DNA of 64,000 bases, taken from contig OW569386.1 in NCBI GenBank assembly GCA_937625935.1, positions 248,001 to 312,000 on the forward strand, written 5' to 3'. Positions within the stretch are counted from its first letter, which is position 1; each line of letters starts with the position of its first letter. The DNA comes from Tetramitus jugosus. Its lineage: Eukaryota; Protista; Heterolobosea. The translations under genes and the position numbers were made by a program. Of this stretch, positions 2,868 through 49,500 are shown piece after piece. A model generated the notes under the pieces. That model searched no databases and was not told the origin of the DNA. It saw only the letters and a list, made by a program, of their open reading frames with translations.

Positions 2868-3097
2868 CTGATGGCGAACTTCAATTCGGAGCCTTACTGT
2901 TTTGTCCTGGGCAGTACCTGATCAGACATTACCCTCTCCGCTGACAAGACACTCCACATAACTGAAGCAACTTTTTTGAAGGAATGTTTTGTTCGTTGAA
3001 GGTTCAACGGTGTGGATTCCTCCCAAAAGCAGAAAAACCAACTTCTCAACAAATAAGCCAAGAAAAAAACAAAACAAAACAAAGTAAGCAAGCAGAC

Positions 3098-4366
3098 ATG
3101 TCCTCTTTTCCATCTCTCCAGAATAATGACAATGCAGAGGACGACGAACTCCTTGTTGCATTCAGTCAAAAGATTTCTCTGACAACCAAGAAGGAAGCAT
3201 CAGAAGAAGAAACAGTTACCATTTCAACTAAGGCCAAGACAACGACAACCAAGAAGCCCACTACAGGTGGTTACAACAAGTTTAGAGGCAAGAATCCAAA
3301 CGTCAAGTGGAAGTCCTTTTCCGTTCAAGGTCTCAACAATCATCACCGTTTCTTGTCCATTGAGAAACAACAGGAAGAGCAAGCAGGGATGACGACATCT
3401 GGCGGTGAAGTGAAAGCGATTGCTGTTGAGCAGAGAAGTGAAGAGTGGTTCAAGCAAAGAATGGGAAGATTGACTGGTTCTCAGAGTGCAAAAGCTCTTG
3501 GTTTCTTTGCCACGAGAAACATTATTCGTCGATTGGGTCTCAAACCAGACACGTATCATCGTCAGGGTGAACTCTCGGATTTTTACTTTAATTTGAATAT
3601 TGAAGAAGAGAACGCAACCGAGTTGTACCGTGAGACAGTGTTTGGTCCCGTGCAACAAGTGTTTATGGATTGGGGCACTCATCATGAGTCCAATGCGATT
3701 TTGACCTTTTTGGATACGTTTTCAAAGTTCAAGGTACAGGAAACAGGGTTTTGGGCAATGGACCGTGATCAGTCATTGAACATGATTTCTGATTTGATTC
3801 AGAAACATCCAAATGTGTTGGACGATGCGTCCGAGTTGTGCTTGAGAGAACATTTGCCATTGATTGGAGCTTCACCTGATGGTATTATTCTGGATGAGAA
3901 CAATGTACCTGTAGCTGTGCTGGAGATCAAGTGTCCTACTCCGTTTGTTCCTGCTAGTACTCATGAGTCATCTGGAGAGTTCCAGTACATTAAGCGAAAG
4001 CCTCATGACAAGATTCCTGTTTATTATTTGCCCCAAATGATGCTCCAAATGTTTGTGACAAAGCTACAAACGTGTTTCTATTGCTCTTTCACAGTGACCG
4101 GAGGCTCAAACATTTTTGAATTGACTTTCGATTCTGCCTATTTCCTTGAGATGCTCTACTGGTTTGCTCGATTTAATGAAGAGTATAAGAACAACGAAGG
4201 CGGAATTAGGGACGAAGATGTATTTATGAAGACATTTGAAGCAGATGCCAGATACTTGGCATTTGTTGACAAAGGATTGGAGATTGTACAAAATTGTGCG
4301 ATCCATCAGGTGGTCCAACAATCACAGCTATCCAATGAAGAACCAATTATGTTCTTTGAAGAGTAA
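3098..4366 (+). CDS. YqaJ / lambda-exonuclease-like PD-(D/E)xK nuclease
   Basis: EQRSEEWFKQRMGRLTGS, MDWGTHHE, IGASPDG, LEIKCP and YYLPQMMLQM; ATG at 3098 follows an A/C-rich leader. Confidence 0.88.
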   Translation: MSSFPSLQNNDNAEDDELLVAFSQKISLTTKKEASEEETVTISTKAKTTTTKKPTTGGYNKFRGKNPNVKWKSFSVQGLNNHHRFLSIEKQQEEQAGMTTSGGEVKAIAVEQRSEEWFKQRMGRLTGSQSAKALGFFATRNIIRRLGLKPDTYHRQGELSDFYFNLNIEEENATELYRETVFGPVQQVFMDWGTHHESNAILTFLDTFSKFKVQETGFWAMDRDQSLNMISDLIQKHPNVLDDASELCLREHLPLIGASPDGIILDENNVPVAVLEIKCPTPFVPASTHESSGEFQYIKRKPHDKIPVYYLPQMMLQMFVTKLQTCFYCSFTVTGGSNIFELTFDSAYFLEMLYWFARFNEEYKNNEGGIRDEDVFMKTFEADARYLAFVDKGLEIVQNCAIHQVVQQSQLSNEEPIMFFEE

Positions 4367-21814: not shown

Positions 21815-22255
21815 TAAATTGGACTCTTGTGAGCCACTATTTTCTATTCTTCTGCCTCCTGTTCTTCAACCATGTTGGACCTCCTGTGCCAGGTTGACCT
21901 TCATTCACGATTGTCTTGACATTCCCTATCGGATCACATACCTCGATTTAGCCGCGCGAAAACTCGTCATTCAAATGTTCTCATTCGGATCCTTTTTCCA
22001 TGATGTTTGATATTTGACACCTGACAGCTCATTTTCTCTTGAGGTGTTGTTTCCTTTTGACCACCAACAACAAACAAACAACAAAACCAAGCACCCATCC
22101 TCCCGTCCGTCGTATCACCACCTCTCGGGTGTTCACATCTTCTTCTTTTTGTTTGTGTGAGTGTGTTGGTTCAACAACAACAACAACAACAAAGACTTTT
22201 CAATTGCTAGCACAGCACACGAATTCACAATTTTAATTAACACATTGTCATCGTC

Positions 22256-25200
22256 ATGTCGTCATCTTCAAGTGAAACATCGACAGTCTATGCACCAGAT
22301 GTCGACCAAGCATTGACTCAACTAAAGTCAATCGATTCCGGTTTCCTCTTATTTGGATTCTCAGAGTTGAGTTCTGAGGTAGAAAATCAACAACAACAAC
22401 AACCTCCAAAAACATTGTACATTCAAGCGAGTTCCCTTCTGTCAGAAAAAACGGAAAATGAAAGCGGCGACAACGAAATTTACGAACAGACCAAAACTCA
22501 CCTCACTGAATCAACTGTTCAATACATTGTTTACAAGAGCAAGACCAAGTACTTGTTTGCGTCATGGATTGGACAGAGAGTCAAACCAATGATCAAGGTC
22601 AAGTGCAGTGCTCACAAGGACTCGCTTTTCCAATTGGTTGAAAAAACATGTGAGATGAAATTTGCTGCAGAACTCAGTGGTATCAACACGGACAATCACC
22701 AAGAGCAAATCAACGAAGCTTTCATGAACTCAAAATTATTCACGGACAATAATTCTGGAAGCGGAGCTGCACATACAACAGAACAAGCGCCAAAAAATGC
22801 CTCGGCTACGATTATGAATCGATATCAACCGTCGTCGTCGTCGTCAGCTCAAAGCTCTTCTTCTTCTTCATCGAACAGAGGTGGAAGCACGACCAACTTG
22901 GCTGCTCAGCTAAGACTCGTTCTATCGATCGATGAAGACAACTTGCAACAAGCTCTCAAGCAAATGCAAGCTAGTGAGCTCTCATGGGTCACATTGGCCT
23001 ATGACGACAATGGTGTGTTGAGTGTGACTGGTAGTGGCCCAGAGCAACAACAAGTTGAGCCATCGATTCAGTATCTGTCAGACACTGACATCAACTTTGT
23101 GTTGTACAAGTGGAATATGGGTACGGAGCTCGGTTACGGTAAGGACACTGAAAAAATTTTGCTCGTCGTGTGGGTCGGTTCGCGAATCAACTCTATTCGA
23201 CGTGGTAAGATTAATCAACACAAGTCCAATGTGTACTCGTTTGTCAACAAGGTGTTCCAATTGAGTGGTGAGTATGAAGTGACGAGTCACGAGGATTTGA
23301 CCAATGATATCATCAAGAATAGAATGTTGGGTAACAAGATGAGCACAACGACTGCTGCTACTACGATTACATCCCCTACTCCTTCTCCAAGAGCTGCTAT
23401 CTCATCACCAAGAGCTGCTTCTTCCGTTTCTGCTGCTACGAGTGGAAATCGTCCAACTGGTTCATTGTGGAAGTTGGCTGCTGTGATCCCAAAGACAAAG
23501 TTCATGATGAGAAAGGAGGCTGAGAAGGCCAATACGAGCAAATCAGCAGCAAAGAGCTTGTCTACTGCTACCAACACCATTAAGGTGTTTGCTAGTGAGC
23601 AGTGTGCTGAAGAATTGGAAAAGTTTGTTGGTCCTGAATCAAAGTCTGTTTGGGCTCTGTTTGGTTACAATGCAGGCAGCAAGAGCGAGTTGAAATTGGT
23701 CGAAACTGGCACAAAGGAAGCCGAGGCACTTTTGTCAGGCAATGAAGTGCTTGTGAAAGAGTGCACAGAGGAAAGCTTGTCATTCATTATTGTCAAGGTG
23801 TTTGTTGCCACAAAGAGAGGAGTGAAGAAAATTGTAGCACCAAAGTACATTCTCGTAACATTCAAGGGCACCAAGCTCAAGCCTTATTTCAAGGTCATCT
23901 CTGCTAACCATGCTGGTAAGCTCAAGAATACTGTAGCACCTATTGTGAATGTCTCTGATGACTTTGTTACAATTACTAGCTTGAGTGAACTGGACGATTT
24001 GAAGAAGTTGTTTTCAAGAGATGAAATCATCGACGACCCAGCTCTGATTGAAGAAGCCAACAATGCCGCTGCTTCTTCCGTATCATCATTTGTTAAATCA
24101 GGAGCAGTGCCTACTCTGGCTGGTGATTTGTCATTCGAGAATGAGAAGGATGTTCAAGAAGCTTTGAAGGATTTGCAAGCTGATTCCTCTGACACGAACT
24201 GGGTCATGATCAAGTACGCAAGCAGAAGATCACTCAAGTATGAGACTAAGGGATCTGGAGGAATGGAAGAATTCAAGACTCAATTGAATGATAATGAAGT
24301 CCAATATGTCTTCTATAAGCTATTTATCGAAGAGTTGGGTGGATCTGCAAAGATTGTACTCATTGCTTCCGTTGGAAAGAGTGTAAAGATGGCACTGAAA
24401 GCCACTTCCACACCAGACAGAATTGCTTTGTTCCAATACGCAGAGTCACTGTGTGGTGTGAGCAGCGAATTCCAAGCCAACGAATTCGATGAGATCAATC
24501 AAACTGCAATCCTCGGTAAGTTGACTGGATCCAAGGGCAAGACTAGTGATTCCAAATCAGAGGGTGCACAATCTCCTGCTGCTCCAAGATCTAGACCTCA
24601 ATTCGGTGGTAAGAACCAGGAATTGAAGATTGCAAACGAGGAAGCTGTTAACAATGCATTGAAAGAACTAAAGGATGATAACAATCCTATCAACTTCTTG
24701 TTGTTCGGATACGATGAACAAGGAGCTAACTTGGAACTGAAGCAATCAGGAACTGATGGTATGGATGGATTGCGTCCACTGATGCACAAAAATCAAGTTC
24801 AATATGCACTGTTGAAGCTCTTGGTCGAAGAAACTGGATATGGTGGCTCTCCAAAGATCACACTCATTGCATGGGTCGGTGAAGAAGTAGCAGGTATGGC
24901 TAAAGCCAAATCTAGCACCCATCGTCTCCTCTTGAAGGAACACTGCTCGAAGATTCTTGCCATTGCCGCAGAATATCCAGTGAACTTGGAAGTTGAGTTG
25001 AACGAGACATCGATCCGCGCTAAATTGACTGGTTCCAAGGGAAAGATTGAACAAGATGGAGGTGTTATGGCACCATCAATCGGAACTACTCGATCTACCA
25101 CTGGACACAAGAAGTTTGGTGGTAAGGACGGTAACTTGAGATTCGCAGATGACAAGGCAGTTTTGGAAGACATTGAGAGATTGAAGGATAACAATAGCGG

Positions 25201-26683
25201 AATCAAATGGCTCATGTTTGGTTACAACGATCCAGAAGACTTTTACACAACATCTGTTGTGCACAAGGGATCAGGAGCCGTCTCAAGCTTTAAGCCACAT
25301 TTAAGTGATAATACCGTTAATTACATCGTATTGAGAATGTCATTCATGGAGTACTATGAAGTCATCAAGGTAGTTTTGATCACCTATGTTGGTGAGAACT
25401 CTCCTTCATTCCTCAAATCACTCAGTGCTGGTCACAGAGTCAATCTGATGGAATTCATGAGAAAGCACTTGTCAATTGGTGGTGAGTTCCATCCACAAGA
25501 CTTGAGTGAATTGACTGATCAAGCACTGCTGGCCAAGATTACTGGTGCCAAGGGTGGTGAAAATGTCGATGATATCAAATCTGAGAGTGAAGAGCCATAT
25601 TCAAGCCAAAAATCAAGCAGATGGGAGCCTCAGAGAGAAGTGAGATCCACGATTGAAGTGAAGAACAAGAATCAATTCAGTGGCGAGTACAAGAATCTCG
25701 AATTCACGGGCAAGGAAGAGATTAGTAAGGCATTGAAAGACTTGAGCGCACGCTCTGATCTTGTTTATCAGGATGAAGAAACACGATTGGACTACATTAA
25801 GCTCAAGATTCAAGGCAAGGGATTCCGTGATGTCGTTGTTGAAGAGATGGGCAAGGGTAGCTTGACTGAAGAATGGAGAGAGAAGCACCTGGATGTTAAC
25901 AATATCAACGTTTTCATCTTTGCAGTGAGCAGCACTGAAGGTGGCACAGGTATGATCACAAAGTTTGTCTTTGTTCAATGGAACGGTGCAAACACCAAGT
26001 TCCTTGAGAAGGCGCAGGCAAGTGAACTCCGTCAATCACTTTACAATTACTGCACAGAAATTTTGTTCATGGGAGCAGAAATTCAAGGATGTACACTACC
26101 TGAGCATGTGACCCACAAGATTGTCATGGAAAAACTCACGGGTAGCAACGTGAGAGGAGTGGAGACAAAGGTGGAGCGAAAGCAGGAAAAGTTTATGAAG
26201 CTCGGAAAGCAAAAGTCTGAGCTCAAGTATGAGAATGAACAAGAAGTGTTCGAAGCACTGGACAAGTTGGTTCAATTGGAAGATCCAGAGATTGACTGGA
26301 TGCTTGTGACATACAAGGAGAACACGATCGATGTTCTTTACTTGGCACACAGTGGTAAGGGCAGTGTGGAGGAGTACAAGCAATACATGACTCCAACCAA
26401 CATGTGCTACATTGTGGTCAAGATTATGCACGCATTCGGTTATGCAAAGGACTTTGAAGACACAATGTCCAAACCATACTATGGCTTGGTGCACTGGAAG
26501 GGAGCAGAAGTGTCCGTGTTGGAGAAGGCTCTGTCCAGTCATCACTGGAATCACTTTGCCAAAACGATTACCAAGAGACTGCAAGCCAAGGAACTCGCCA
26601 TTCAAGGCAGTCAGTACCATGCAGAACACTTGGAAGAAGTCACACTGGCCAGAATCAAGAAGACGATGAGATTGCTTGACTAA
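22256..26683 (+). CDS. Large actin-binding protein made of about 8 tandem ADF-H (coactosin/drebrin-like) domains
   Basis: Repeated unit 'V..AL..L......NW....Y...G.GG..E....L....V.Y......K..LI.WVG.......KA....H' occurs about 8 times across 1475 aa with no introns. Confidence 0.88.
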   Translation: MSSSSSETSTVYAPDVDQALTQLKSIDSGFLLFGFSELSSEVENQQQQQPPKTLYIQASSLLSEKTENESGDNEIYEQTKTHLTESTVQYIVYKSKTKYLFASWIGQRVKPMIKVKCSAHKDSLFQLVEKTCEMKFAAELSGINTDNHQEQINEAFMNSKLFTDNNSGSGAAHTTEQAPKNASATIMNRYQPSSSSSAQSSSSSSSNRGGSTTNLAAQLRLVLSIDEDNLQQALKQMQASELSWVTLAYDDNGVLSVTGSGPEQQQVEPSIQYLSDTDINFVLYKWNMGTELGYGKDTEKILLVVWVGSRINSIRRGKINQHKSNVYSFVNKVFQLSGEYEVTSHEDLTNDIIKNRMLGNKMSTTTAATTITSPTPSPRAAISSPRAASSVSAATSGNRPTGSLWKLAAVIPKTKFMMRKEAEKANTSKSAAKSLSTATNTIKVFASEQCAEELEKFVGPESKSVWALFGYNAGSKSELKLVETGTKEAEALLSGNEVLVKECTEESLSFIIVKVFVATKRGVKKIVAPKYILVTFKGTKLKPYFKVISANHAGKLKNTVAPIVNVSDDFVTITSLSELDDLKKLFSRDEIIDDPALIEEANNAAASSVSSFVKSGAVPTLAGDLSFENEKDVQEALKDLQADSSDTNWVMIKYASRRSLKYETKGSGGMEEFKTQLNDNEVQYVFYKLFIEELGGSAKIVLIASVGKSVKMALKATSTPDRIALFQYAESLCGVSSEFQANEFDEINQTAILGKLTGSKGKTSDSKSEGAQSPAAPRSRPQFGGKNQELKIANEEAVNNALKELKDDNNPINFLLFGYDEQGANLELKQSGTDGMDGLRPLMHKNQVQYALLKLLVEETGYGGSPKITLIAWVGEEVAGMAKAKSSTHRLLLKEHCSKILAIAAEYPVNLEVELNETSIRAKLTGSKGKIEQDGGVMAPSIGTTRSTTGHKKFGGKDGNLRFADDKAVLEDIERLKDNNSGIKWLMFGYNDPEDFYTTSVVHKGSGAVSSFKPHLSDNTVNYIVLRMSFMEYYEVIKVVLITYVGENSPSFLKSLSAGHRVNLMEFMRKHLSIGGEFHPQDLSELTDQALLAKITGAKGGENVDDIKSESEEPYSSQKSSRWEPQREVRSTIEVKNKNQFSGEYKNLEFTGKEEISKALKDLSARSDLVYQDEETRLDYIKLKIQGKGFRDVVVEEMGKGSLTEEWREKHLDVNNINVFIFAVSSTEGGTGMITKFVFVQWNGANTKFLEKAQASELRQSLYNYCTEILFMGAEIQGCTLPEHVTHKIVMEKLTGSNVRGVETKVERKQEKFMKLGKQKSELKYENEQEVFEALDKLVQLEDPEIDWMLVTYKENTIDVLYLAHSGKGSVEEYKQYMTPTNMCYIVVKIMHAFGYAKDFEDTMSKPYYGLVHWKGAEVSVLEKALSSHHWNHFAKTITKRLQAKELAIQGSQYHAEHLEEVTLARIKKTMRLLD

Positions 26684-29187: not shown

Positions 29188-29619
29188 TTAATGCTTGAAG
29201 AAAGCCTTGCATTTGCCCAGGATCTCTTCTTCAGAGAGCTGGTTAACATCGCCGGTTTGAATACCCAATCCAGAGAAGCCGATACGATTTCCGAATGGAA
29301 TTCGAGTAGCAGAGTAGACAAATTTGTTTCTAATGTTGGCAGTTGATGGAGCCCACAGTATCATTACACTCTTGCTTCTTTGACTGTCAGGCATTCCTTG
29401 GATTTCAGAAGGGACAGTGTAGTTGGCTCTGTAGACGGCATATCTACATTCATTGCTTGGTAAACCTTGAACCAACTCTTCTAGAGAAGAACCAGTTCGC
29501 TCAACTTGAATAGAACCATCTTTAATAACGAAGGTGACATATTTATGTTCACCCTTGAGGAAGCAGTCTCTGAATGTGGTAATAGCACCGTCATGGGTTG
29601 GAATTCCAGTTTGAGTCAT
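29188..29619 (-). CDS. Cofilin / actin-depolymerizing factor
   Basis: KYVTFVI, LPSNECRYAVY, ILWAPSTANIRNKFVYSAT and IQTGD; TATA-like TATAAAA on the minus strand at 29725-29731. Confidence 0.9.
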   Translation of the reverse strand: MTQTGIPTHDGAITTFRDCFLKGEHKYVTFVIKDGSIQVERTGSSLEELVQGLPSNECRYAVYRANYTVPSEIQGMPDSQRSKSVMILWAPSTANIRNKFVYSATRIPFGNRIGFSGLGIQTGDVNQLSEEEILGKCKAFFKH

Positions 29620-29899
29620 CTTGAATAAAGGTATTAGAGCTAGTTAGTTACTTAGTAGTAATGCTGTCTTGTGTCTTTGTGTGAGTTGTTGGTTTGTACT
29701 TGCTCTGGCACGTAATGTCTCGCCTTTTATACACAGTTGTTCAAGTCATGGCCTGTGCAGTTCGTCGGTCAAGTATCCCGTTCGTCAATCATCTGTGACG
29801 TTCAATATTCCGTTCGTCAAGTCATCAATTTCGCGACAAGAACAATTCTGGAGTTCCATTAATACCGTCCGAACAGTAAACAAATTGAAACCAGAAAGC

Positions 29900-42580: not shown

Positions 42581-42758
42581 CACTTGATTCATTAGAGATA
42601 TACCGGTGGGAACTAACGTTTCCTTATTTCGTCCAAGACAGGACACATTTAAACAACTTATTTGATCATTTCTAAGCAATGTCGTCAATCTGACAACCAA
42701 TTGCCCCGCACAATAAAAGACAACACAGTTAGATGTACAACAAGGCTTAGTTATTTAT

Positions 42759-44024
42759 TTAGAAGCGAATATTGTATGAAGCACCAACACCCCAGTTTCC
42801 TTTGGTGTCAACATTGCCACCAGCTTGGAAGCCACCGTTTCTGTAACCACCATTGGCGCTAAATCCATTGTTGGAAGCATTTCCTCCAACAAACCAGTCT
42901 TCTGGGTCGACATCTTCTTCGTCATCCTTGGAAGTATATTCGAAACCAGCGTTCCACTTGCCACCGTTGGAGGCATTGCCATGGACCTTCCAGTCTTCAA
43001 CATCCTCTTCGTCGTCCTTGGAGTTGTACTCGAAGCCTGCTTGCCATTGACCACCGTTTGCGGCATTACCGTAAACCTTCCAGTCCTCAGGATCAATCTC
43101 TTCTTCGTCATCCTTTGAGGTCCATTCGAAACCAGCGTTCCATTTTCCGCCATTGGCAACGTTTCCATTCACCTTCCAGTCTTCAACATCTTCTTCGTCG
43201 TCCTTGGAAGTATATTCAAAGCCAGCTTGCCATTGACCACCGTTGGCAGCGTTTCCATAGACCTTCCAGTCTTCTGGATCGACTTCCTCGTCGTCCTTGG
43301 AGTTGTATTCGAATCCAGCGTTCCATTGACCACCGTTTTGAGCATTTCCGTAAACCTTCCAGTCCTCAGGGTCAACTTCTTCGTCATCCTTGGAGTTGTA
43401 CTCGAAACCTGCTTGCCATTGGCCGCCGTTTGCAGCATTGCCATAGACCTTCCAGTCTTCTGGGTCAACTTCTTCTTCGTCGTCCTTGGAAGTATATTCG
43501 AAACCAGCTTGCCATTGACCACCGTTTGCGGCATTACCGTAAACCTTCCAGTCCTCAGGATCAATCTCTTCTTCGTCGTCCTTTGATGTCCATTCGAAAC
43601 CGGCATTCCATTTTCCACCATTGGCAACGTTTCCATTCACCTTCCAGTCTTCAACATCTTCTTCGTCGTCCTTGGAGTTGTACTCGAAGCCAGCATTCCA
43701 CCTTCTTCCGTTGGCAATGTTTCCGTGAACCTTCCATCGCTCCTCATCAATCTCTTCTTGATCATTCTTGGATCTCCATTCGAAGCCAGCGTTCCACTTT
43801 CCGCCGTTTGCGACGTTACCGTGGACCTTCCAGTCTTCTGGGTCAGCTTCCTCAACAGCAATAGCCTTGGAAACAAGTTGGCAGACTCTAGAGCAGATAG
43901 CTTGAGAGTTTCCACGACCTAGGCAGTGCTTCATGCACAAGCTGTCGACAGTGGCGGCAGTCTTGGCTGAGCAGATGGCGACAAGTGCCAATACGCAGAA
44001 CAGGAACAAAGAAATTGTCTTCAT
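42759..44024 (-). CDS. Secreted tandem-repeat polyprotein (421 aa), putative multi-core peptide precursor
   Basis: Signal peptide MKTISLFLFCVLALVAICSA; CX3C-X9-CX3C motif; ten repeats of WKVxGNxxNGxxWxAGFEx(T/N/R)SK with acidic spacers; terminal Gly-rich unit. Confidence 0.9.
   Translation of the reverse strand: MKTISLFLFCVLALVAICSAKTAATVDSLCMKHCLGRGNSQAICSRVCQLVSKAIAVEEADPEDWKVHGNVANGGKWNAGFEWRSKNDQEEIDEERWKVHGNIANGRRWNAGFEYNSKDDEEDVEDWKVNGNVANGGKWNAGFEWTSKDDEEEIDPEDWKVYGNAANGGQWQAGFEYTSKDDEEEVDPEDWKVYGNAANGGQWQAGFEYNSKDDEEVDPEDWKVYGNAQNGGQWNAGFEYNSKDDEEVDPEDWKVYGNAANGGQWQAGFEYTSKDDEEDVEDWKVNGNVANGGKWNAGFEWTSKDDEEEIDPEDWKVYGNAANGGQWQAGFEYNSKDDEEDVEDWKVHGNASNGGKWNAGFEYTSKDDEEDVDPEDWFVGGNASNNGFSANGGYRNGGFQAGGNVDTKGNWGVGASYNIRF
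42897..43832 (-). repeat. Ten coding tandem repeats of 90-96 nt (30-32 aa)
   Basis: Unit lengths 32,30,32,32,31,31,30,32,30,32 aa sum to 312 aa = 936 nt; units 3-4 and 8-9 form a higher-order duplication. Confidence 0.95.
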
Positions 44025-44454
44025 CTTGTTATTTGAATTCAAAAGTATGTGTTTGGATGTTTTTTCGTTTTTGGATGTTTCAGCAGAAAACTGCTGCTGG
44101 GTGTTGGGCAGCTTTATGGTTGAGGCGAGGGGCGTGGCAGCCATTGTAAAAAATTGTAAGTTCGCTCGGAAAAAAGTAATTGATTGATGTCCGAGCAGGA
44201 GAAATGGTGGAGGTCACCTTTCGGCGTTATCTCAAGTTGGAATACTCCATTCCACAAGATATTTCCCCTCTACAAGTCCCTCTAGCTCTCGCGTTTCTTT
44301 CGCTTCCTTGTGTGTGAACCAAAGATCTTTGGTCCATATAGAGGGGAATTTTGCAATATAATTATTGTGAGTTGGTTGCATGGCAGGAGTTGACTCAGAG
44401 GCGAAAACCATTCAAAGTTACTCATAGGTACATCCAACGACTTCGTAGTTCCCT

Positions 44455-48377: not shown

Positions 48378-49500
48378 CTATTTGAATTCCGCATTTACTT
48401 CTTCCTCAAGTCTGCCAAGTATCTTTCGACTGCTGTGGTACTCCAGCCACTGGGCCACGTCTTGACAACAGAAGGTCTTCTCTCCATCATATCATAGTAC
48501 TGCTTGAGCAACGGATACTACGCATCAAATGTAAAAGTTAACTCTTGTCACGTACATGACAATAAAACAAACAATAGAGCTCCCAAGGAAAAACCCAAAC
48601 CAAATAAATAAATAAATAAATACACATACACCTGACAAATCCAATCCAAAACGCACCAATTGTGCCAAATAGGGAAAGAATGCCACATCGACAAGCATAA
48701 TGTTCGTACCACCTAAAAATTCAGCTCCATGCGACATGAGTAACTTTTCCCATCTGGTCAACTCGATATCAAGACTTGTTTTCCATTCCTATGTATTCCA
48801 TTCAAATTATTTAAAATGAATAACACATGAAAAAAAGAAAAAATCAAAGTTAAACGAGTTCGAACAATCATCATCTTTAAAAAAACTTTCATCATAATCA
48901 TTACTACTACTACTACTTACTCTCAACTTTTCTTTCAACACCTTCTTGTCAATCTTCTCATGAACCAAGTGTGCAAGGATGGAACGAGCAGTGTTGGCCC
49001 ACACTCCAATACTCTCACTAAACAAAACCAAGTTATGAGTGTATTCACCTCTATTTTCAAGTGTAGGTTGTCCTAAGAGTGGCGCATCTGGATAATATGT
49101 CTCAATATATAGTAACATGGCACTCTCTTCATGTAAGATGGCATCGACATCTGTCATGATCGGTAATTCTCCTCTAGGGTTCAATTTCAAGATGTCTTCT
49201 TGTTCATGTTCCTTCTGTACATTACGAATTCGAATTCGTTGCACACAGTCATAAAAGCTTTCGTGTGAGCATTTCCATTTTTTTGAGCGCGCTCAAATAC
49301 CTTTCGTTTACAGTGCCGCGGCATTCTCTCAATCAAAAAAATATATATAACACACATGTGACGAATCATTGAATTCATACCTGACTGAGAACAATCAATC
49401 TAGTTTCATATTTCAACTTTTTCTCTTCCAGCATGAGACGGATTCTCCATCCGATACTGGTATACTTTTTTTCCATCGGTCGGTACAGTGTGATGACCAT
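48378..49500 (-). CDS. Glutathione S-transferase, 4 exons; introns 49215-49380, 48789-48920, 48518-48629
   Basis: Spliced product MVITLY...WRIRLMLEEKKLKYE..SQ|KEHEQEDILKLNPRGELP...HEESAMLLYIE...FLGGTNIMLVDVAFFP...|YPLLKQYYDMMERRPSVVKTWP. Confidence 0.85.

Follow-up and report, generated by a model that had tools for sequence, protein, structure and literature searches.

A transcribed gene for a probable multi-core beta-hairpin precursor with acidic junctions in Tetramitus jugosus, a candidate antibacterial polyprotein

The window, that is, the whole stretch of DNA analysed here, comprises 64,000 nucleotides of the Tetramitus jugosus genome (contig OW569386.1 of assembly GCA_937625935.1, positions 248,001 to 312,000). 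Its genes are dense and mostly long ORFs, and the neighbours of the gene studied here are ordinary eukaryotic genes (Fe-SOD, dCache adenylate cyclase, mitochondrial carriers, calcium uniporter, CorA, cofilins and beta-amylase). Few introns, dense genes and sensor adenylate cyclases are traits suggestive of a heterolobosean. An ORF of 1480 aa at 22241-26680 on the plus strand contains eight cofilin/ADF domains (308 bits), which is an unusual number in tandem, and a single-domain cofilin gene lies nearby at 29191-29643 on the minus strand. Amid these eukaryotic genes, a YqaJ-like viral recombinase domain (52.7 bits) is encoded at 2966-4363 on the plus strand. A GST-like gene contains a GT-AG intron of 132 bases (48787-48920), which is spliced in the RNA sequencing run X5. 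The profile of the protein family described below matches only one gene within the window, that of the protein P0001, and no second family copy was found there.

The general layout proposed for this gene by an earlier sequence-only reading (a signal peptide, ten cores, acidic spacers and a terminal unit) is present in one ORF, and the coordinates of its parts are now fixed (Table 1). The signal peptide, which that reading had also named, is predicted by a hydrophobicity scan. An in-frame ATG lies upstream at 44144 (minus strand) and would add 40 residues (44025-44144) ahead of the signal peptide; this start is disfavoured, on the weak hint that in four runs the main RNA contigs reach no further than 43966-44055. 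The “short pro-region” does exist behind the signal peptide, but it holds a four-cysteine module that had been overlooked. At the other end of the gene, the AATAAA is a possible polyadenylation signal, judged by its sequence and position.

Table 1. Features of the P0001 gene, with positions in the window
Feature	Position	Strand	Basis or remark
P0001 CDS, intronless, 421 aa	42759..44024	-	One uninterrupted ORF; RNA contigs over 42741-44055
Predicted signal peptide, aa 1-20	43965..44024	-	Hydrophobic window from aa 7, mean KD 3.27
CX3C-X9-CX3C module, aa 30-48, predicted helix-loop-helix	43881..43937	-	Motif and AlphaFold
Core 1, aa 65, net +3	43767..43832	-	
Core 2, aa 97, net +3, preceded by ...EER	43671..43736	-	
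Core 3, aa 127, net +2, protein sequence identical to core 8	43581..43646	-	
Core 4, aa 159, net +1, protein sequence identical to core 7	43485..43550	-	
Core 5, aa 191, net +1, protein sequence identical to core 9	43389..43454	-	
Core 6, aa 222, net +1	43296..43361	-	
Core 7, aa 253, net +1	43203..43268	-	
Core 8, aa 283, net +2	43113..43178	-	
Core 9, aa 315, net +1	43017..43082	-	
Core 10, aa 345, net +2	42927..42992	-	
Region with ten acidic spacers, 8-10 aa each, one after each core	42897..43766	-	
Gly-rich end unit, 45 aa from aa 377, net +2, terminal Phe	42762..42896	-	
AATAAA, sharing the last base of the stop codon	42754..42759	-	RNA contigs end at 42741-42765

In the translated ORF each core is 22 aa long and free of cysteine. 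The figure of ten cores depends on the assembly of the window, because none of the contigs listed spans the repeat array. The amphipathic two-strand pattern described from the sequence was found in the cores: one face reads W-V-G-(V/I/A) and W-A-F-(W/Y), and the other, polar face reads K-(H/Y/N)-N and (N/Q)-G-E-(T/N/R). The end unit reads as a pair of predicted hairpins linked by a tight turn. The junctions are as had been stated, with ...ED before cores 1 and 3-10 and before the end unit, and ...ER before core 2. The spacers have a net charge of -5 to -8. The sole KR/RR pair of the protein is an RR at aa 107, which lies within core 2 and not at a spacer junction, in agreement with the non-Kex2 route that had been implied. 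Trimming by dipeptidyl aminopeptidases, as in prepromelittin, had been suggested too, but the spacers of P0001 do not parse into X-Ala/X-Pro dipeptides when their sequence is read, so that this trimming alone would not release the cores.

The core pairs with identical protein sequences (4/7, 5/9 and 3/8) differ at 8, 7 and 4 synonymous codons, respectively, with zero replacements, which indicates that the repeats are neither chance nor an echo of the assembly. Over 45 core pairs, which are not independent of each other, pS is 0.69 and pN is 0.11 (pN/pS 0.16), and the P0001 cores are under purifying selection. The spacers are conserved as well, with pN 0.037 and pS 0.85 for their first four residues, and pN 0.171 and pS 0.80 for their last four.

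The stretch is partly present in 20 of the 24 sequencing runs listed, which come from 13 studies. Contigs from four of the four soil metatranscriptomes examined cover 42741-44055, with almost nothing on either flank; identical variants recur in all four studies, which may stem from a single campaign. The P0001 gene is transcribed, since RNA contigs cover it and run X5, with depth in 25 of 30 bins, holds the spliced intron of a neighbouring gene. The contig depth in X5 is 471 and 615 on the two unique ends of the P0001 gene, 305 on the SOD gene and 2-20 on most neighbours, which gives no ranking of expression because the run was chosen by the P0001 gene. Three other runs, one of them a groundwater metagenome, have even depth across all 30 bins. 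In three DNA-like runs the depth over 42876-44143 is about 1.5-2 times that of the flanks, for which double-counted repeats, alleles or a paralogue could each be a cause.

The family of P0001 was collected by several searches. A word search gave 2 matches among 7990 candidates, and full phmmer against 1.84 billion representatives yielded 12 matches, of which 2 (P0009 and P0011) were then dropped as unrelated repeats after their sequences were read. Profile searches added 4 relatives and a metagenome scan added 2, out of 120 pattern matches. In total 16 relatives of P0001 were found, and “hypothetical protein” is the only name given to any of them. No true relative was found in prokaryote genomes, where tblastn retained just 1 of 61 pattern matches: a short motif, present by chance, within a long ORF of a bacterium that resembles an outer-membrane receptor. 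None of 81 pattern matches in viral contigs was confirmed, PHROGs gave nothing under E 0.03 for 7 proteins, and the PDB searched by sequence gave 20 weak matches (best E 0.07), none of them meaningful. A signal-like N-terminus is present in 14 of 18 sequences scanned, and the remaining 4 look like fragments. One relative is encoded in a single ORF of a 2070-base contig (L001).

Judged by eye, the hairpins of the family occur in two settings, either alone after an acidic junction or turn-linked in an end unit of 2, 4, 6 or 8 strands. The end unit closes in Phe or Trp in 12 of 17 proteins (P0006 is excluded, as its final Trp follows a spacer). A regular expression for spacer-separated hairpins returned 51 rows from 17 proteins, from which 5 mis-starts inside end units were dropped. 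Before the separated hairpins, Glu is found at P2 in 46 of 46 rows and Asp or Glu at P1 in 44 of 46, with the reservation that repeats within a gene are not independent, while P4-P3 are variable (DP, DV, DE, AL or LL). As an exception, P0020 contains an end unit that has no acidic junction before it. From one hairpin to the next, the linker measures between 11 and 48 aa; the longest, found in P0006, encloses a complete cationic CX3C-CX3C module, and 4 of the 17 family proteins carry this motif.

In four relatives (P0012, P0017, P0018 and P0019), the separated hairpins are replaced by Pro-rich modules and by Lys-rich modules of the amphipathic-helix type, net positive, which alternate with spacers of the S-D/E-A type ahead of the common end unit. 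The best Pfam match of the Pro-rich module is Metchnikowin, at E 0.01 and under the cut-off. P0012 was linked to the family by phmmer (E 3.9e-4), and P0017 and P0019 match the profile at 4e-23 and 3e-17, although neither protein was part of it. P0018 is linked to P0024 by BLASTP (4e-10); compared directly with the end unit in the window it matches weakly (E 0.01), and the P0001 end unit shares 53% identity with the final part of P0017 across 47 aa. The presence of unrelated cationic modules between acidic spacers favours, as we infer, a processed multi-peptide precursor. P0012 and P0018 contain Lys-rich amphipathic modules of 29 aa and Pro-rich modules between S-D/E-A spacers, and each of these is by itself a candidate antimicrobial peptide. 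The multi-copy precursor layout proposed from the sequence thus gains variable linkers with foreign modules, mixed cargo and a conserved Glu from the relatives.

Structure prediction gave two different pictures. The whole-chain AlphaFold model, made from the single sequence, has two strands per core as had been expected, yet it stacks the chain as a solenoid (pLDDT 64, pTM 0.66); the mid-chain strand blocks reach pLDDT 84-90, and the end unit is of low confidence in this model. The same model gives the N-terminal module helices at 23-36 and 41-54 (pLDDT about 75-81). When the full-chain model was ranked by VIA, proteins of the SufB/D type and curli CsgA came out on top (Z 17.6-19.5, identity 3-8%), such as 9h78_B (Z 19.5, rmsd 3.3, 244 aligned), SufB/D (18.5) and, for this single-sequence model, CsgA 8c50_A (Z 18.3, rmsd 9.7, 274 aligned, 3% identity). 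In contrast, the eight-strand end unit of P0025, modelled from an alignment of 11 sequences, forms an antiparallel meander (pLDDT 68, pTM 0.52), and it matches parts of membrane barrels with Z-scores only slightly above background: PapC (Z 9.7, rmsd 5.0 over 92), Tom40 (Z 9.4, rmsd 2.5 over 90), a Mdm10/SAM entry (Z 9.2) and TamA (9.0), with Foldseek E above 0.4. Foldseek at E 0.001 gave no match for either the full-chain or the P0025 end-unit model. The antiparallel model was given more weight than the solenoid because it is alignment-based, and the predicted solenoid could also be a storage form of the chain.

Profile matches were examined as well. P0001 passes the Pfam Porin_4 cut-off of 27 bits with a score of 33.9, the sum of 3 repeat stretches, and this match to a Gram-negative porin profile is read as likeness of the strand pattern; the full-chain model of P0001 matches solenoids, and its gene lies in a eukaryotic genome. 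Protamine_P2, DUF6505 and DUF3693 were rejected, as their cut-offs were passed only on summed short repeat stretches. By language-model similarity in the Atlas, P0001 comes closest to hymenoptaecin-like (0.76) and Attacin_C (0.75) clusters, and the P0025 end unit to Attacin_C (0.86) and Gloverin (0.85); all of these are below the 0.9 threshold, and the recognition value of the whole-protein query (1591) is under the tool's mark of 2300. The top three Atlas clusters for the P0025 end unit (L002:741-1016) are phage hypothetical proteins of about 100 aa (0.88-0.89), possibly Gly-rich strand proteins of similar make-up.

Attacin, hymenoptaecin and gloverin are thus the closest named Atlas clusters, and they share with the predicted P0025 end unit a Gly-rich, Cys-free, amphipathic antiparallel build that resembles outer-membrane barrels. 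In ants, hymenoptaecin is made as a multipeptide precursor, and PMC3415428 describes the same order within a single exon: a signal and a pro-part, then Gly-rich beta units that recur with spacers between them. Excerpts of PMC10690985 describe one attacin that was modelled as a 12-strand trimeric barrel and damages outer membranes. However, the unit released from P0001 would be one hairpin of 22 aa and not a domain of 97 aa, its acidic spacers are free of RR/KR, and its host is a microbial eukaryote. Attacin_N, Attacin_C and Gloverin of Pfam gave no match to P0001 or the relatives scanned (E up to 1-10; 0.01 in the scan of neighbouring ORFs). With no such profile match and no dibasic junctions, P0001 is placed by its sequence outside the attacin family.

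Multi-peptide precursors of pore formers are already known in protists, namely naegleriapore B and the Dictyostelium AplE and AplK (PMC11542183 and PMC5850478, each as far as drawn on here). As proposed for P0001, these are precursors with a signal peptide, and they yield several membrane-active peptides. But their peptides are six-cysteine, helical and saposin-like, as are amoebapores, whereas the P0001 cores are Cys-free and predicted to be beta; no saposin family of Pfam matches P0001, which on its sequence does not belong to the naegleriapores. The N-terminal module agrees with the C1-X3-C2-Xn-C3-X3-C4 motif of alpha-hairpinins, whose disulfides join C1-C4 and C2-C3, and with their helix-loop-helix, as predicted (PMC7191063, in part). 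Plant alpha-hairpinin precursors differ, in that P0001 has one copy of the module, is not from a plant and consists mostly of beta units; neither Pfam nor sequence comparison gave a link to alpha-hairpinins, and the motif, a short one, has evolved in several lineages. The module is not an arthropod defensin by Pfam either, having four cysteines instead of six in the CS-alpha-beta pattern and 18.7 bits for Defensin_2 against a cut-off of 20.4. Generally, many related peptides per gene with acidic spacers are also found in apidaecin, magainin and yeast alpha-factor (sections of PMC5850478 and PMC3415428), but those rely on dibasic cuts and X-Ala/X-Pro trimming; P0001 has no dibasic junction and its spacers do not parse in this way, although those of some relatives do.

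Several other explanations were weighed. It is unlikely, though it accounts for the full-chain model, that the chain stays whole, or that its cores restack after cutting, to form a curli-like cross-beta solenoid or functional amyloid for a cyst coat, slime or storage lattice. The repeat length and the stacked model resemble CsgA and SufB/D, the mid-chain blocks are confidently modelled, alternating faces suit a beta-arch as well as a hairpin, and the spacers are conserved too. Tandem repeats modelled from a single sequence are prone to stack, however, and the identity to the matched folds is very low. An in-register stack would also align strongly acidic spacers, the long variable acidic linkers contain foreign modules, the contiguous version of the hairpin is predicted to be antiparallel, and with no more than 1-2 separated cores each, P0003, P0007 and P0008 have too few to be likely solenoids. 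The reading of an uncut antibacterial chain, whose hairpins insert tip first with up to 24 strands and whose acidic spacers are outside loops serving as a low-pH switch, is rather improbable. In relatives, the spacer occupies the position of the tight turn that links contiguous hairpins, so it could be a loop rather than a cut site, and both the Porin_4 match and the lack of dibasic sites at the junctions fit a chain that is never cut; but the strand number would vary widely between relatives, foreign modules sit in the linkers, and no barrel is among the fold-search rows of the full-chain model.

There is a small chance that the peptides are cut out but serve as signals (a pheromone, an aggregation or encystment cue), or are aimed at fungi or rival protists and not at bacterial membranes. 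Amphipathic beta units of 22-96 aa are unusual for signals, and the family also carries modules of antimicrobial type (Pro-rich, cationic-helix and Gly-rich meander), which count against this; in its favour are the low charge of the cores, the repeat polyproteins that encode pheromones and neuropeptides (PMC5850478, in part), the neuropeptides with acidic cleavage (PMC9525235, in part) and the often antifungal activity of plant CX3C hairpins (PMC7191063, in part). The 8 + 28 ORFs scanned around the gene within the window include no peptide-tailoring enzyme, which, together with the length, two-faced pattern and homology of the cores to a folded meander, makes it very improbable that the cores are substrates of cross-linking enzymes in a eukaryotic RiPP with Trp/Tyr ring closures. 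The precursors of fungal and plant RiPPs do share the layout of signal, repeated aromatic cores and acidic spacers.

From the above, we consider that P0001 is somewhat more likely than not an antibacterial polyprotein which is cut at acidic sites and whose hairpins act on bacterial membranes. In this process, the precursor would enter the secretory path through its predicted signal and would likely be secreted or bound for the phagosome. By comparison with relatives, the spacers may be pro-segments that can be removed and that until then neutralise the cores, hold them in solution and keep them inactive. The cut there would be made by an acid-directed protease that reads Glu at P2 together with a large hydrophobic P1' residue. 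Eukaryotes do have a route of this kind, because the precursors of cnidarians and ctenophores have acidic residues as major sites of cleavage (PMC9525235, in part). Cutting would release the four-cysteine helical hairpin, the ten 22-residue beta-hairpins and the four-strand end unit, which may act together on bacteria. By analogy with attacin and hymenoptaecin, the W/V/A/F/Y face of the freed hairpins might sink into the lipid of the Gram-negative outer membrane, where the hairpins would pair along their edges to build barrel-like pores. The most likely site of action would be the acidic food vacuole of a bacterivore. A reading as classical cationic peptides is weakened, because 5 of 10 cores have a net charge of only +1.

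A more far-reaching version is possible but doubtful. P0001 and its relatives would then be a protist arsenal, in which acid-cut polyproteins mix four classes of antimicrobial peptides known mainly from insects and plants; the 22-residue hairpin would assemble by itself into barrel pores of the outer membrane, the Phe-ended strand may jam BAM as a mimic of the beta-signal, and the family would be the protist counterpart, convergent or ancient, of attacins.

The multi-copy precursor layout is already known; what appears to be undescribed is the hairpin unit, along with acid-only junctions and mixed cargo in a microbial eukaryote. The sequence-only reading knew of no such family from protists. 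This holds for the hairpin family, of which no description was found in the non-subscription literature searched, but not for multi-peptide pore-former precursors as such, which protists do have with a saposin fold. The main text of a heterolobosean genome paper (PMC11589745) contains 0 mentions of antimicrobial, pore-forming or attacin.

The killing of bacteria by soil amoebae and flagellates is partly understood, with saposin-like pore formers and lysozymes as its known means. If the P0001 family is antibacterial, it would be a second class of protist antibacterial peptides, based on a new beta-hairpin unit, and it would point to acid-directed precursor processing outside animals. Moreover, the P0001 cores are short, Cys-free peptides that can be synthesised directly. 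One idea holds that membrane barrels arose through amplification of one hairpin; if single hairpins form pores, they would offer a natural model for this origin and a way into the mechanism of attacins, which is poorly understood. Should the arsenal reading be true, the 22-residue hairpin would be the smallest natural barrel-building unit.
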